Part shown: positions 12,873 through 28,530 of the stretch, in pieces
How the letters are laid out: every line of letters starts with the position of its first letter
Position numbering within the stretch: position 1 is the first letter of the stretch
Sequence record: MT446387.1
Source: Escherichia phage TH09
DNA: 64,000 nucleotides
Direction: 5' to 3' (one strand)
Notes under the pieces: generated by a model
Seen by the model: only the letters and a program-made list of their open reading frames with translations
Database searches by the model: none
What the model was told of the DNA's origin: nothing
Position numbers and translations under genes: made by a program

Positions 12873-12933
12873 GTTTACAACAGGGTAGTAGTGTGATACT
12901 ATTACCCTATCAACTACTGAGGAGAATAAAATG
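12873..12933 (+). promoter_or_regulatory. Early promoter cassette with inverted repeat
   Basis: TTGTTTAC -35; 10-bp inverted repeat 12883-12892/12898-12907 whose right arm carries the -10 TACTAT; leader ends GAGGAGAATAAAATG. Confidence 0.55.
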
Positions 12934-13173
12934 AGATTACAACGCCAAAGCATCAAAGATTCAGAAGTTAGAGGTAAATGGTATTTTAATATCATCGGTA
13001 AAGATTCTGAACTTGTTGAAAAAGCTGAACATCTTTTGCGTGATATGGGATGGGAAGATGAATGTGATAGATGCCCTCTTTATGAGGATGGAGAAAGCGC
13101 AGGATTCTGGATTTACCATTCTGACGTCGAGCAGTTTAAAGCTGATTGGAAAATTGTGAAAAAGTCTATTTGA
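12931..13173 (+). CDS. Hypothetical protein (80 aa)
   Basis: ORF track; ATG with SD gaggag. Confidence 0.6.
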   Translation: MRLQRQSIKDSEVRGKWYFNIIGKDSELVEKAEHLLRDMGWEDECDRCPLYEDGESAGFWIYHSDVEQFKADWKIVKKSI

Positions 13174-13183
13174 GGAAAATATT

Positions 13184-13543
13184 ATGTCTGACATTCATGT
13201 AGCTGGAATTGCTCGAGTAAGTATTCGTTGCCAACTTAAAACTGCGCCTGGGACGGCTTATATTAATTTATCACACGACCTATGTTCTAGTGAAAGACCA
13301 TTAACTGGTGTAATTACGTTTTACGCTGGAGTTGGCGGAAACGAATTTATTGTAGGCGAATTTGTTGGCTGTAAATTAAAAGTTCAGAAAAATGTGTTAG
13401 AACTTTTTAGCGATCTTTATGGTGATAGTGATGAAGTTTTTGATGAAATCGCGCAAGCAGTTAACAGAGGAATGGTAATTTTAGTTAAAATGATTAAAGA
13501 TAGCGGATTTGCTTCTGGCCCCTTTCAGTGGGAGGTAATATGA
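13184..13543 (+). CDS. Hypothetical protein (119 aa)
   Basis: ORF track; ATG with SD gagga. Confidence 0.6.
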   Translation: MSDIHVAGIARVSIRCQLKTAPGTAYINLSHDLCSSERPLTGVITFYAGVGGNEFIVGEFVGCKLKVQKNVLELFSDLYGDSDEVFDEIAQAVNRGMVILVKMIKDSGFASGPFQWEVI

Positions 13544-13785
13544 TTTTTGTATTTGAATTTATGAATGATGACTTCGATTATGCAATTTTTAATGCATTGT
13601 ATAATCCTGATTTAAATGAATTTAATGAAATGTTTTCTGATGCTTTGAGTATGTCAGAAGAATACTGTGGAGCAAGTCAACGTGTTTGTGTGACAGTCTT
13701 TGAAAACAAAGAAAAGACCTATGAAGAAATGTTCTTTGATGCTAATAAAGCCACTGAATGGTTTCTTGAAAGGGGTTTTGCGTAA
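13540..13785 (+). CDS. Hypothetical protein (81 aa)
   Basis: ATG 13540 with SD ggagg (track start 13528 is GTG); overlaps neighbours. Confidence 0.55.
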
Positions 13786-14366
13786 TGATTAAATTGGTAT
13801 TCGCTTATTCTCCAACTAAAACGGTCGAAGGCTTTAATGAATTAGCATTCGGTTTAGGTGATGGGTTACCATGGGGACGAGTTAAAAAGGACCTCCAGAA
13901 TTTTAAAGCTCGTACCGAAGGTACAATTATGATTATGGGTGCTAAAACGTTCCAGTCATTATCTACATTACTTCCTGGTCGTAGACATATTGTAGTGTGT
14001 GACCTTGAGCGCGATTATCCTGTAACTAAAGACGGCGATTTAGCACATTTCTATATTACTTGGGAGCAATATATAGATTACATTTCTGGCGACGAAATTC
14101 AAGTATCAATTTCTGGCGCGCCATTCGAGACTATGCTTGACCAGAATTCTAATGTTAGTGTAATTGGCGGGCCTGCTCTGTTATATGCTGCATTACCTTA
14201 TGCAGATGAAGTAGTTGTTTCTCGCATCGTTAAAAGGCATCGTGTTAATTCAACGGTTCAATTAGACGCAAGTTTTCTTGATGATATAAGCAAACGTGAA
14301 ATGGTTGAAAGTCATTGGTATAAAATAGATGAAGTAACAACCCTTACGGAATCAGTATATAAATGA
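13785..14366 (+). CDS. frd: Dihydrofolate reductase (193 aa)
   Basis: Length as T4 Frd; N-terminus [12 protein letters not shown]...[15 protein letters not shown] is DHFR-like. Confidence 0.9.
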
Positions 14367-14386
14367 AATAATACGTGGCGGAAAAT

Positions 14387-14734
14387 ATGAATTTTAATTA
14401 TTACCCTATTCTATTAGAAAAAGACGCGAAACAACCAAAATGGCAGGGTCCTCAGTTTATTAAAGGCGTCTATCAATTAATAGTTCCTAAAGACAAAATT
14501 TATAGCAGTTGTTTCACTGAATCCGCTTGCAGTATTTTTGGTAATAGTTCTCCGTATTGGAATTTTGATATAAAGCTTGACAGAAATATCGATATTTGGT
14601 TGAAAGCTATGGATATTGGTAATATCACGTTTGATGAGAATAATTATCATATTATTGGTCGCTTTTCCAAACGCGGTAAAGAATTATATTTCACGCCTGA
14701 AATTGAGAGAAAATTTGATGCTAAACCGTATTGA
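14387..14734 (+). CDS. Hypothetical protein (115 aa) between frd and td
   Basis: ATG at 14387 (track begins at GTG 14375); no recognisable motif. Confidence 0.5.
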   Translation: MNFNYYPILLEKDAKQPKWQGPQFIKGVYQLIVPKDKIYSSCFTESACSIFGNSSPYWNFDIKLDRNIDIWLKAMDIGNITFDENNYHIIGRFSKRGKELYFTPEIERKFDAKPY

Positions 14735-14779
14735 TTATTTAGCTTCATAAAATGTATTATAATTTATATAAGGTACTAA

Positions 14780-15640
14780 ATGAAACAATACCAAGATTTA
14801 ATTAAAGACATTTTTGAAAATGGTTATGAAACCGATGACCGAACAGGCACAGGAACAATTGCTTTGTTCGGTACTAAATTGCGTTGGGATTTAACCAAAG
14901 GTTTTCCTGCAGTAACAACTAAAAAGCTCGCCTGGAATGCATGCATTGCTGAGTTAATATGGTTTTTGTCAGGAAGCACAAATGTCAATGATTTACGATT
15001 AATTCAGCATGATTCATTAATCCAAGGCAAAACAGTTTGGGATGAAAATTACGAAAATCAGGCAAAAGATTTAGGATACCATAGCGGTGAACTTGGTCCA
15101 ATTTATGGAAAACAATGGCGTGATTTTGGCGGTGTAGACCAAATTATAGAAGTTGTTGATCGTATTAAAAAACTGCCAAATGATAGGCGTCAAATTGTTT
15201 CTGCGTGGAATCCAGCTGAACTTAAATATATGGCATTACCGCCTTGTCATATGTTCTATCAGTTTAATGTGCGTAATGGCTATTTAGATTTGCAGTGGTA
15301 TCAACGTTCGGTAGATGTTTTCCTCGGTCTTCCATTTAATATTGCATCATATGCTACGTTAGTTCATATTGTAGCTAAAATGTGTAATCTTATTCCTGGA
15401 GATTTGATATTTTCTGGTGGTAATACTCATATCTATATGAATCACGTAGAACAATGTAAAGAAATTTTACGTCGTGAACCTATGGATTTATGCGAATTAC
15501 AGTTAAAATTTCCAGATGAATTTGATGAATGGGACACAGAATCGCAGGTATTTTGGTTGAGTCAATTTGCAAAGCCTCATAATTTTGTTCTTAACAACTA
15601 TGTATCTCATCTGCCAATTAAAGGAAAAATGGCGGTGTAA
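14780..15640 (+). CDS. td: Thymidylate synthase (286 aa), uninterrupted
   Basis: Full-length contiguous ORF with TS active-site region (PPCH); no intron. Confidence 0.93.
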
Positions 15641-15660
15641 TTTTATTATTGCGAGGATGT

Positions 15661-15924
15661 ATGATTTTACGATTTAAAGATACTTCTGGCGTTGTTCTTT
15701 TTACACTTCCTAACCCAAGCGAGTTAGAAGTTCCAGGACCAGAACAGCCTATTACCATTTATGGTAAAAAATACTACACTCATAAAATGACTCGTGAGTA
15801 TTTTGATAATAAAATTTCCACAGTTAAAACTTCTTCTGACTGTTACTATGATATTACTGTATTAACGGAAAAACAGTATGACGAATTATTCCAGCGTGGG
15901 CCGTCTATGCCGGGTAGTGAATAA
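15661..15924 (+). CDS. Hypothetical protein (87 aa)
   Basis: ATG 15661 with SD gagg (track start 15649 is TTG). Confidence 0.5.
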
Positions 15925-27307: not shown

Positions 27308-27425
27308 ATAATATGAATTGAGTTTCAATTCTATGTGGTAGTCTACAACTGAGAGATCTGTCGAAAGAAGATGAAATTCAGAAGAACGTGACTACCGAGT
27401 TTTAATCTCTAACGAGAATTTTTAA

Positions 27426-27674
27426 ATGATTAAACAATTACAACACGCTCTTGAACTGCAACGAAACGCATGGAATAATGGTCACGAAAACTATGGCGCA
27501 TCTATTGATGTTGAAGCCGAAGCTCTTGAAATCCTGCGTTATTTCAAACATCTGAATCCTGCTCAAACTGCATTAGCTGCTGAGCTTCAGGAAAAAGATG
27601 AACTTAAATATGCTAAGCCTCTGGCTTCTGCTGCACGAAAAGCAGTTCGTCACTTTGTGGTAACACTGAAGTAA
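27426..27674 (+). CDS. rIII: rIII lysis-inhibition accessory protein (82 aa)
   Basis: 82 aa as T4 RIII; synteny after gene 31. Confidence 0.8.
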   Translation: MIKQLQHALELQRNAWNNGHENYGASIDVEAEALEILRYFKHLNPAQTALAAELQEKDELKYAKPLASAARKAVRHFVVTLK

Positions 27675-27868
27675 TTTATTGGAGAGTCACTGCCTTAGTG
27701 TGAAGTTAAAACGAGGAGCCGTCGAACTTTGTTTTACGGTGTACCTCTTGAATGTTGACGAGGTTTATGGTTATCCTGTCGGTAAATAATCAAAACCTAA
27801 GTACCCCTTGAGGGCTTTCGCAGGCAATGCCAATAAGTCCTGCATTTTCATTTAAAAGAGAATTTATA

Positions 27869-28045
27869 ATGGCAAAACAAGCTAAAGCAAAGAAAGCAGT
27901 TGAAAAGAAAGTTGGTGATTCTAAACGCGCTGGTTACAAGCGTGGGTCGAACTCTCGTATCAATCAAACTGTTGAGAAGATCATGCGCCGAGCACGTGCG
28001 GTTCTTCGAGATGATGCTTCTCGTTTTGGTAAGCAGAAAGCATAA
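27869..28045 (+). CDS. Small basic protein (58 aa; alternative ATG 27827 gives 72 aa)
   Basis: Lys/Arg-rich MAKQAKAKKAVEKKVGDSKRAGYKRG...; followed by a strong terminator. Confidence 0.5.
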   Translation: MAKQAKAKKAVEKKVGDSKRAGYKRGSNSRINQTVEKIMRRARAVLRDDASRFGKQKA

Positions 28046-28050
28046 GTTGA

Positions 28051-28074
28051 GGACTCCTTCGGGAGTCCTTTTTT
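28051..28074 (+). terminator. Intrinsic terminator
   Basis: GGACUCC-UUCG-GGAGUCC followed by UUUUUU. Confidence 0.85.
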
Positions 28075-28098
28075 ATTTTCCAAAGATTGCACAAAGTT

Positions 28099-28147
28099 GT
28101 TTACAGTATGATTCCTTTGTGATAGTATTATCTTACACAAACAAAGG
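28099..28147 (+). promoter_or_regulatory. Early promoter cassette with inverted repeat
   Basis: GTTTAC -35; inverted repeat CCTTTGT(28114-20)/ACAAAGG(28141-47) with -10 TAGTAT in the loop; right arm overlaps SD AAGGAG; leader ends AGGAGAATAAAATG. Confidence 0.55.
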
Positions 28148-28155
28148 AGAATAAA

Positions 28156-28488
28156 ATGAAAACGATTAATCTGAACGCTGCAGTTAAAACTAAATGCTTC
28201 AATGGTAAATATGATGAAACTATGTGGTTCTTAATGGCAGTTGAAGGTGATATCATTGAAGTAGAAACAGCAGAAGGTATGGGAACAGATTTCACCTTTA
28301 CAATTCAAGTTCATAATTTCTTTACTGGTTGGATTTATGAATTGAATACAGTAATCGTTGGAAAAATTGAACAAAATGAATTGGGTGAATGGTATTATGT
28401 TACAGCTCGCCAACGTGCCGAACGCTTAATTGAGAAGATGAAAAAAGTTGGTAAACTTGACATGCAGCACTGGAAAGTAGTAAAATAA
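28156..28488 (+). CDS. Hypothetical protein (110 aa)
   Basis: ORF track; strong SD. Confidence 0.6.
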   Translation: MKTINLNAAVKTKCFNGKYDETMWFLMAVEGDIIEVETAEGMGTDFTFTIQVHNFFTGWIYELNTVIVGKIEQNELGEWYYVTARQRAERLIEKMKKVGKLDMQHWKVVK

Positions 28489-28490
28489 TT

Positions 28491-28530
28491 GTTTACTTTG
28501 GTACAGGATATGATATTATATACCTGTACC
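28491..28530 (+). promoter_or_regulatory. Early promoter cassette with inverted repeat
   Basis: GTTTAC -35; inverted repeat GGTACAGG(28500-07)/CCTGTACC(28523-30) with -10 TATTAT in the loop; leader ends AGGAGAATAAAAATG. Confidence 0.55.

Follow-up and report, generated by a model that had tools for sequence, protein, structure and literature searches.

Early-promoter cassettes in a T4-like Escherichia phage: a spacer-encoded hairpin predicted for read-through RNA that may bury the Shine-Dalgarno sequence in a subset of genes

Results

Analysis of a 64,000-nucleotide (nt) stretch of Escherichia phage TH09 (sequence record MT446387.1; hereafter, the window) revealed a recurring element upstream of its early genes, in which a sigma-70-type promoter, an inverted repeat and the Shine-Dalgarno (SD) sequence of the following gene are combined. 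These elements are probably (probability about 0.6) composite cassettes similar to the promoter-early-stem-loop (PeSL) units of T4-type phages, in which a boundary hairpin would form only in RNA reading through from the upstream gene and, in a subset, would block the SD. According to this model, T-even-type cassettes are fitted into minimal intergenic gaps, and the promoter spacer, which is not read by sigma-70, is complementary to sequence 3' of the -10. It pairs either with the discriminator and start-site region, which yields a compact hairpin carrying the -10 at its apex, or with the SD region, which yields a long-range hairpin. Local transcription would begin in or after the 3' arm, leaving the hairpin to RNA from the upstream gene, for which it would serve as a boundary element. 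In the SD-pairing variant (alc and, weakly, 30.8), the hairpin would block ribosome binding, so that the gene's own early transcript would be translated but the read-through RNA would not; this is the logic described for T4 e, soc, 49, and I-TevI, except that the promoter enclosed by the hairpin is an early one. In the compact variant (frd.1, the gene downstream of cd.3, and 30.7), the SD would remain free, and attenuation or protection of the 3' end of the upstream message are candidate functions.

All cassette copies cited in an earlier note on this DNA were found. Their elements are listed below, with the free energy of folding (dG) and z-scores for RNA folded from the end of the -35 to the ATG and compared with dinucleotide shuffles. 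Start sites were placed 7 nt after the -10.

12873..12933, + strand: frd.1 (DUF5417) cassette, compact type with the SD open; dG -15.2, z -2.97; -35 GTTTAC 12873-12878; 5' arm 12882-12893; 3' arm 12897-12908, with the -10 TACTAT (12897-12902) in it; predicted start 12909; SD about 12919-12925; ATG 12931; upstream open reading frame (ORF) stop ends at 12870
21308..21368, + strand: alc cassette, predicted SD-occluding type; dG -23.9, z -7.11; -35 21308-21313; -10 TATAGT 21332-21337; predicted start 21344; ATG 21366; rnlA stop ends at 21304
21314-21364, + strand: alc hairpin, about 23 pairs, with SD GAGGA (21357-21361) within the 3' arm
24632..24694, + strand: cassette after cd.3, compact type, T4 homologue annotated as Pe133295; dG -16.3, z -5.42; -35 24632-24637; 5' arm 24643-24654; apical loop 24655-24658; 3' arm 24659-24670; -10 TATTAT 24656-24661; predicted start 24668; SD 24680-24684; ATG 24692 of a 175-amino-acid ORF; upstream stop 24629
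28099..28158, + strand: 30.8 cassette; z -2.82; -35 28099-28104; 5' arm 28112-28120 (TTCCTTTGT); -10 TAGTAT 28123-28128; predicted start 28135; 3' arm 28141-28149 (ACAAAGGAG), overlapping SD GGAGA 28146-28150; ATG 28156
28491..28559, + strand: 30.7 cassette, compact type; dG -16.1, z -3.69; upstream stop 28488; -35 28491-28496; hairpin 28499-28531 with core GGTACAGG/CCTGTACC; -10 TATTAT 28514-28519 at the apex; predicted start 28526; SD 28546-28550, open; ATG 28557
37055..37118, + strand: alt.-3 (DUF5498) cassette, its first 54 nt identical to the alc cassette; dG -23, z -5.15; -10 37079-37084; predicted start 37091; hairpin 37063-37110, including SD GAGGA 37104-37108; ATG 37116

The hexamer GTTTAC was present at 12873, 21308, 24632, 28099, 28491, and 37055; the longer -35 that the earlier note had assigned to all copies, TTGTTTAC, was found at 12873, 28099, and 28491 only. 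Every copy carries a TAnnnT -10 with an upstream TGn, 17-18 nt after GTTTAC. Scanning the 64 kb for GTTTAC-N14/15-TGnTAnnnT gave seven matches where 0.14 were expected, a count reached in none of 100 shuffles; every match lay on the + strand, immediately 5' of an ORF. A generic sigma-70 scan of the window showed no excess over shuffles (77 versus 78; 39 versus 36.8), and the T4-specific motif alone is informative for promoter calls, unlike the generic scan. With two early promoters absent from the earlier note, at 8579 (rnh) and 11881 (frd.3), the window holds eight within 29 kb. A near-identical leader, AGGAGAATAAA(A)ATG, had also been proposed for all copies; it occurs at 12873, 28099, and 28491, and the other three carry GAGGA-type leaders.

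The inverted repeats were borne out by folding: all six copies were more stable than their shuffles (z -2.82 to -7.11), the frd.1 repeat (12882-12893/12897-12908) comprising 12 pairs with G.U counted. At 21308, 37055, and 28099, the SD lies within or overlaps the 3' arm, as previously claimed. The proposed geometry also held, with the predicted start in or after the 3' arm and the 5' arm in the spacer, so that both arms occur together only in RNA begun upstream. In four copies (12873, 21308, 24632, and 28491) the -35 begins 2-3 nt past the upstream stop, and at 37055 the alt stop codon TAG overlaps it, sharing the G of GTTTAC; the intergenic region therefore consists of promoter and leader alone.

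Hairpins are conserved beyond the promoter consensus

The identification of these elements as T4-type early promoters was correct: T4 bears the same cassettes with the same arms. The T4 record names the cassette after cd.3 Pe133295, a coordinate that equals the predicted start, 7 nt after the -10; we infer the other start sites by the same rule.

For T4, we collected 41 GTTTAC-N17/18-TAnnnT sites on the early strand and folded 52-nt segments that begin with the spacer and end at +28 after the -10. Compared with shuffles, the mean fold had a z of -2.1 (p = 2e-7), and the longest perfect inverted repeat reached shuffle p <= 0.05 in 12 sites (binomial p = 5e-7). Under DNA parameters, the sites averaged -5.7 kcal/mol against -2.9 kcal/mol for 3000 random T4 52-mers (p = 4e-7).

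A pattern scan of IMG/VR contributed 57 loci from about 25 T4-like genomes; once T4, the window, and JLBYU24 were included, the set comprised 153 unique promoters and 103 non-redundant ones. As a control, left and right halves taken from different promoters were joined into chimeras, which keep position-specific composition and break the match within each promoter. Native T4 promoters folded at -11.9 versus -7.3 kcal/mol for chimeras (z = -11.5), and the 103 non-redundant promoters at -10.25 versus -6.68 kcal/mol (z = -15.5), 38 of them falling in the best 5% of their own chimeras. The spacer therefore covaries with the sequence 3' of the -10, with arms that differ among promoters. Hairpins of at least 7 pairs were found in 87 of the 103 and enclosed the -10 in 75 of these 87, with the apex a median of 4.5 nt past its first base. 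Chance, or a by-product of the promoter consensus, was ruled out as the origin of the hairpins by this composition-preserving test.

Comparison across genera at alc and 30.7

To the window we added rnlA-alc junctions from Karamvirus, Kagamiyamavirus, Roskildevirus, Dhakavirus, Mosigvirus, and two Klebsiella phage groups. Distant alc relatives were obtained by tblastn on phage records; an IMG/VR search with Alc yielded near-identical relatives only. Arm pairs were counted directly; MAFFT fails to align arms of differing sequence. Six of the seven added genera shared with the window a TTTAC(A) -35, a TGnTAnnnT -10, and a helix of 9-16 bp pairing spacer positions 2-12 with the alc SD region. In those seven, the helix was predicted at -16 to -24 kcal/mol, with SD accessibility near 0 in read-through RNA. 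The helix was absent from the Mosigvirus junction, one of the eight genera examined.

The arm sequences vary among genera, column 7 for example being TA in three, AT in three, and GC in one. Even so, 72 of 77 helix cells were paired, against 45.8 +/- 4.0 (maximum 58) when 3' arms were swapped among genera, and none of 1854 derangements reached 72. Sliding the partners by 1-3 nt left 28-40 paired cells. Outside the SD core (six columns), pairing held in 38 of 42 cells (swapped mean 19.5, maximum 30). The comparison strongly supports selection for burying the alc SD in read-through RNA.

At 30.7, close relatives keep GGTACAGG/CCTGTACC, with one G.U variant, and vary in loop, leader, and upstream sequence. 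Among homologues, a Klebsiella phage and Jiaodavirus have a compact hairpin of other sequence, and Moonvirus, Karamvirus, and Gelderlandvirus have an SD-pairing helix of TCCTCCGTTGTAT with ATACAACGGAGA. As modeled by folding, the constant feature of 30.7 is a hairpin of read-through RNA only, with the spacer as its 5' arm and a variable 3' partner.

The structured molecule and its context

Stems with at least 8 Watson-Crick pairs and one internal mismatch carried G:T in 18 cases and A:C in one (unique set, p = 4e-5); the non-redundant set gave 11 versus 1. Folding stability also favored the sense over the antisense strand: the difference was 2.8 kcal/mol for T4 (p = 2e-4), where random windows gave 0.5, and 1.2 kcal/mol for the larger set (p = 0.003). 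The wobble bias and the sense-strand stability indicate selection on sense-strand RNA and argue against a cruciform or a protein operator; they point to the sense-strand transcript as the folding molecule.

An element acting in DNA, either a recombination hotspot or cruciform or a palindromic operator through which a repressor shuts off early promoters, appears improbable on these data. Such a role would agree with the published descriptions of PeSLs adjoining indels and recombining into mini-circles (PMC2839356, PMC4122927), with gene gain or loss between the window and T4 exactly at two cassettes, with apparent hybrid cassettes in some relatives, and with the fact that the mechanism shutting off T4 early promoters is not known (PMC2988021). 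Yet the arms vary from promoter to promoter, offering no single protein site, the 18 to 1 excess of G:T over A:C and the sense-strand bias are not expected from duplex or cruciform DNA, and hairpins are absent where no transcript enters. Recombination at the cassettes is probably a consequence of the repeated promoter and leader sequence and not the reason for the stems.

The strength of the hairpin depended on what lies upstream. Among 98 non-redundant promoters, the 57 located within 25 nt of a co-directional ORF stop and lacking a terminator had a mean minimum free energy of -13.95 kcal/mol, compared with -5.33 for the 16 with a canonical terminator at most 90 nt upstream and -5.46 for the other 25 (p = 1e-10). 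The window agrees with this rule: structure is weakest at its two promoters behind terminators (11830 and 28049), and the rnh promoter, at a divergent junction, lacks a hairpin. The features concerned are as follows.

8579..8640, + strand: rnh early promoter at a divergent junction, without a co-directional gene upstream; hairpin not significant (z +0.40), serving as an internal negative control
11830..11956, + strand: gene 32 terminator (11830-11848) and, behind it, the early promoter of frd.3 (-35 11881; ATG 11954); weak structure, z -1.94
28049..28070, + strand: canonical intrinsic terminator after gene 30.9 (GC stem, then a T tract), located 29 nt before the 28099 promoter; its stem-loop is of the published T4/PST PeSL type

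As a separate observation, the T4 early promoters at 146875 and 55384, also behind terminators, contain a perfect 14-bp palindrome, CATAAAGCTTTATG, entirely inside the spacer. The spacer of the window frd.3 promoter differs from these, having CCATGG only.

The published interpretation of PeSL stem-loops, in which the hairpin halts or lowers upstream transcription and each cassette starts a fresh unit, is somewhat unlikely for the hairpins described here. It has direct experimental precedent, since one RB49/phi1 PeSL stem-loop reduced lacZ expression about as much as rrnB T1 (PMC2839356), would likewise operate at the RNA level on the sense strand, and accounts for the absence of hairpins behind canonical terminators. 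However, none of the six window hairpins is followed by a terminator-like T tract, and the 8 nt after the 3' arm of 75 promoter hairpins contained on average 1.45 T and 4.5 A, with at least 5 T in only two. This T-poor, A-rich sequence makes canonical intrinsic termination unlikely. T-even stems are also weaker and more AT-rich than the assayed RB49 stems with their G and C runs, and termination leaves unexplained both the coincidence of the 3' arm with the SD and the covariation of the helix around it. On the T-tract count we rejected a canonical intrinsic terminator, a result that does not bear on pausing or factor-dependent attenuation.

The position of the hairpin, whose base lies 10-13 nt past the upstream stop codon, also fits a processing barrier. 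A putative RNase E or RegB cut, made either at the SD's GGAG or within the A-rich leader, would leave the hairpin shielding the upstream cistron from 3' exonucleases. An A-rich unstructured leader with GGAG does follow the hairpin, RegB cleavage at the GGAG of early SD sites is established in T4 (PMC3014915), and the hairpins and the terminators, themselves a source of 3' hairpins, have complementary distributions. We consider this explanation unlikely for the set as a whole; the SD-pairing variant is not explained by it, its GGAG being buried in the helix.

SD burial is predicted for a subset of cassettes

The earlier note had proposed that transcripts entering from upstream hide the SD, coupling translation to the local promoter. 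Predicted probabilities that the SD is unpaired were as follows.

alc: local transcript 0.77; read-through 0.02-0.03
30.8: local 0.71; read-through 0.25-0.30
cd.3-downstream gene: local 0.86; read-through 0.24-0.45, not via the promoter hairpin
30.7: local 0.72; read-through 0.75-0.78
frd.1: local 0.68; read-through 0.55-0.60
alt.-3: local 0.04; read-through 0.20

The proposal is strongly supported at alc, weak at 30.8, and ambiguous at alt.-3, and it does not apply to frd.1, 30.7, and the cd.3-downstream gene (24632), where the hairpin is clear of the SD and accessibility was no lower than with a shuffled spacer. Folding of read-through against local leaders, the check that the note had suggested, thus indicated SD burial at alc but not as a general property of the cassette.

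Over 92 non-redundant promoters, mean SD accessibility was 0.63 in local transcripts and 0.31 in read-through RNA. Near-complete burial (probability unpaired <= 0.05) was predicted in read-through RNA for 22 of the 92 (24%), compared with 11% of chimeras (p = 5e-4), and tests on T4 alone gave the same bimodal accessibility. Many occluded cases have CTCC or TCCT immediately 3' of the -35. As the mean over all promoters barely departs from controls, occlusion is a property of a subset and not of the cassette; for that subset, the predictions do favor SD burial in read-through RNA. SD occlusion as a universal property was ruled out, the all-promoter mean not differing from controls.

Several points weigh against the model. 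Mean read-through accessibility was close to controls (0.31 versus 0.36 for promoter-swapped chimeras; 0.35 versus 0.37), and three of the six window copies (12873, 24632, and 28491) had the SD open or untouched. At alt.-3 (37055), pairing with coding sequence already occupied the SD of the local transcript (0.04). At 30.8 (28099), shuffling the spacer lowered SD accessibility to about 0.05, below the native 0.25-0.30, and the native helix is therefore not specifically responsible there. The folds are equilibrium predictions for naked RNA and take no account of RegB, S1, ribosomes, or folding during transcription. A hairpin in sense-strand single-stranded DNA is likewise compatible with the G:T bias, and a literature search for T4 transcript 5'- or 3'-end maps at this resolution found none; the read-through RNA itself and any effect on translation are inferred.

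SD helices of this kind could alternatively serve translational coupling, with ribosomes that end the upstream gene melting the helix; in read-through RNA, the downstream gene would then be translated only together with its neighbor instead of being silenced. Helix-mediated coupling is common in operons, and the upstream stop is just 10-13 nt from the helix base. This gap is, judging from ribosome footprints, about the reach of a terminating ribosome. Because the -35 hexamer and a further 3-6 nt separate the stop from the first pair, however, most of the helix should stay closed, and coupling would leave the compact class without a role; we regard it as improbable.

Discussion

Relation to known systems

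The earlier guess that the cassettes correspond to PeSLs was right in kind. In phi1 and RB49, the commonest stem-loop positions are between the -35 and -10 or over the -10 (Arbiol 2010, PMC2839356), and the same account, citing Repoila et al. 1994, treats elements of the T-even internal-protein (IP) locus as PeSL analogues, with T4 early promoters and weaker, AT-rich stems. The window cassettes share several features of PeSLs: an early promoter, a stable stem-loop, an SD with start codon, and repeats beside gene gain or loss. They resemble the RB49/phi1 units in being intergenic, with a sigma-70-type early promoter, stem-loop, SD, and start codon in the same arrangement, in stem-loop position, in the G-T pairs of the published stems, in their many repeats, and in adjoining indels. 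They differ in promoter and stem: near-consensus TTGACA/TATAAT and stems of G and C runs there, GTTTAC and varied stems here. In its treatment of PeSLs, Arbiol 2010 reads the stem-loops as terminators and recombination sites, not as translational switches, and those passages do not report SD pairing, dependence on upstream context, or strand-specific wobble.

A closer match in phage group is provided by the T-even PST/T4 PeSLs, which share the promoter consensus (TTTACW-N17-TAYWAT; Comeau et al. 2014, PMC4122927) and end in SD and ATG. Their published description is matched by the terminator-plus-promoter units 11830/11881 and 28049/28099. The figure legend of that study places stem-loops just 5' of the promoter, whereas the hairpins described here span it. 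The cassette as such is therefore already known as the PeSL; the reading in terms of read-through RNA, the context dependence, and the anti-SD spacer at alc and other genes were not found described.

Occlusion of a ribosome-binding site by a hairpin with an internal promoter has been described for T4 e, soc, 49, I-TevI/II/III, and segB and for Aeh1 mobE, in all cases with late or middle promoters that delay expression (PMC3014915, PMC2988022). In these systems, the long RNA buries the SD and the shorter RNA of the internal promoter frees it, and alc has the same predicted geometry. The difference is that the internal promoters here are of the early sigma-70 type and not late (gp55, TATAAATA), which would confine translation to the gene's own early transcript. 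None of the TATAAATA late-promoter motifs of the window lies inside a cassette hairpin. The reviews PMC3014915, PMC2988022, and PMC2988021 do not mention an early-promoter version. Like Rho-independent terminators and intercistronic stabilizers, the hairpins are sense RNA structures right after a stop codon, with a distribution complementary to terminators; unlike them, they lack a U tract, are followed by A-rich sequence, and overlap a working promoter.

Possible significance

The alc and alt.-3 cassettes share an exact 54-nt repeat, as had been noted (21308-21361 = 37055-37108). The copies are 15.7 kb apart and flank pseT, cd, 31, rIII, ligase, and alt; T4 also has this duplication, with a few substitutions between its copies. 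A TATAAATA late-promoter motif is located at 32870, upstream of alt. Alt is a head protein injected with the DNA (PMC2988021), which implies late synthesis, and late alt transcripts would therefore enter alt.-3. A possible rationale for these two copies is that late alt RNA would enter alt.-3 much as rnlA RNA would enter alc.

We raise, with odds somewhat below even, a generalization to the Tevenvirinae: the spacer would form the 5' arm of an RNA structure restricted to read-through transcripts, and in about a quarter of promoters it would be a matched, covarying anti-SD, restricting translation of those genes to their own early RNA and so constituting a promoter-autonomous translation switch. 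T4 early promoters are a textbook system whose spacers have so far been taken as filler, and how immediate-early genes are kept separate from transcripts crossing them has been unexplained. If the hairpins act in this way, promoter spacers of these phages hold a second, RNA-level code, and tightly packed genes have a general means of insulation without terminators, gene by gene and at zero intergenic cost, that is absent from reviews of T4 (PMC3014915, PMC2988022, PMC2988021). The late-promoter arrangement of e, soc, 49, and I-TevI would then be one case of a wider design that includes early genes such as alc. The PeSL concept would gain a recombination-independent reason for stem conservation, and annotators would have reason to inspect promoters for RNA structure.

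Gene gain, loss, and rearrangement at cassettes

The window carries a 175-amino-acid ORF without a Pfam family (24692-25219) after the cd.3 cassette; T4 lacks this ORF, and between its cd.3 and cd.2 the same promoter drives cd.2 directly. This looks like gene insertion or replacement exactly at the cassette, as expected from the PeSL shuffling model. At frd.1, T4 (compared over 146004-146143) has a small extra ORF between the promoter and the AGGAGAATAAAATG leader; in the window (12903-12933), the promoter is joined directly to the AGGAGAATAAAATG leader, without that ORF.

The T4 record describes 133300-133313 (window 24650-24663) as the 'inverted complement' of an earlier sequence, a correction affecting early promoter Pe133295. 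These 14 nt coincide exactly with the loop flanked by GGTAGAG and CTCTACC, the two arms, which means that the earlier T4 sequence had the -10-bearing loop flipped between inverted repeats. Either an artefact of sequencing or a genuine template-switch inversion, which would move the -10, could explain the flip. In several relatives, apparent hybrid cassettes with unmatched left and right arms lie upstream of 30.8 homologues, one example being CTTGTAGG ... CTTGTACC, a direct instead of an inverted repeat; judged by their sequences, they look like crossover products within the -10 region of two different cassettes.

Genomic setting

Positions 12000-16000 of the window showed 99% identity to Escherichia phage JLBYU24 (Tequatrovirus) and 90-97% to many T4 relatives, identifying the window by sequence similarity as T4-like Tequatrovirus DNA. 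Its + strand runs the same way as early transcription in T4, and the genes are arranged in the order rnh, 32, frd.3-frd.1, frd, td, nrdA, nrdB, denA, rnlA, alc, pseT, cd.x, cd, 31, rIII, 30.9-30.1, ligase, alt, and alt.-3, followed by late genes on the opposite strand. The Pfam families behind the cassettes are ALC, DUF5417 (frd.1), Phage_30_8, Gp30_7, and DUF5498 (alt.-3). An Rfam search of the entire window returned no family matches.

The td (14780-15640) and nrdB (18511-19689) ORFs are unbroken, without group I introns, I-TevI, or I-TevIII, and the gap between nrdA and nrdB has no homing-endonuclease gene; T4 and JLBYU24 differ from the window in the intron and endonuclease state of td and nrdB. 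Between alt.-3 (+) and the convergent late genes (-), a perfect GC-rich hairpin at 37411-37432, terminator-like on both strands, is probably a bidirectional terminator.

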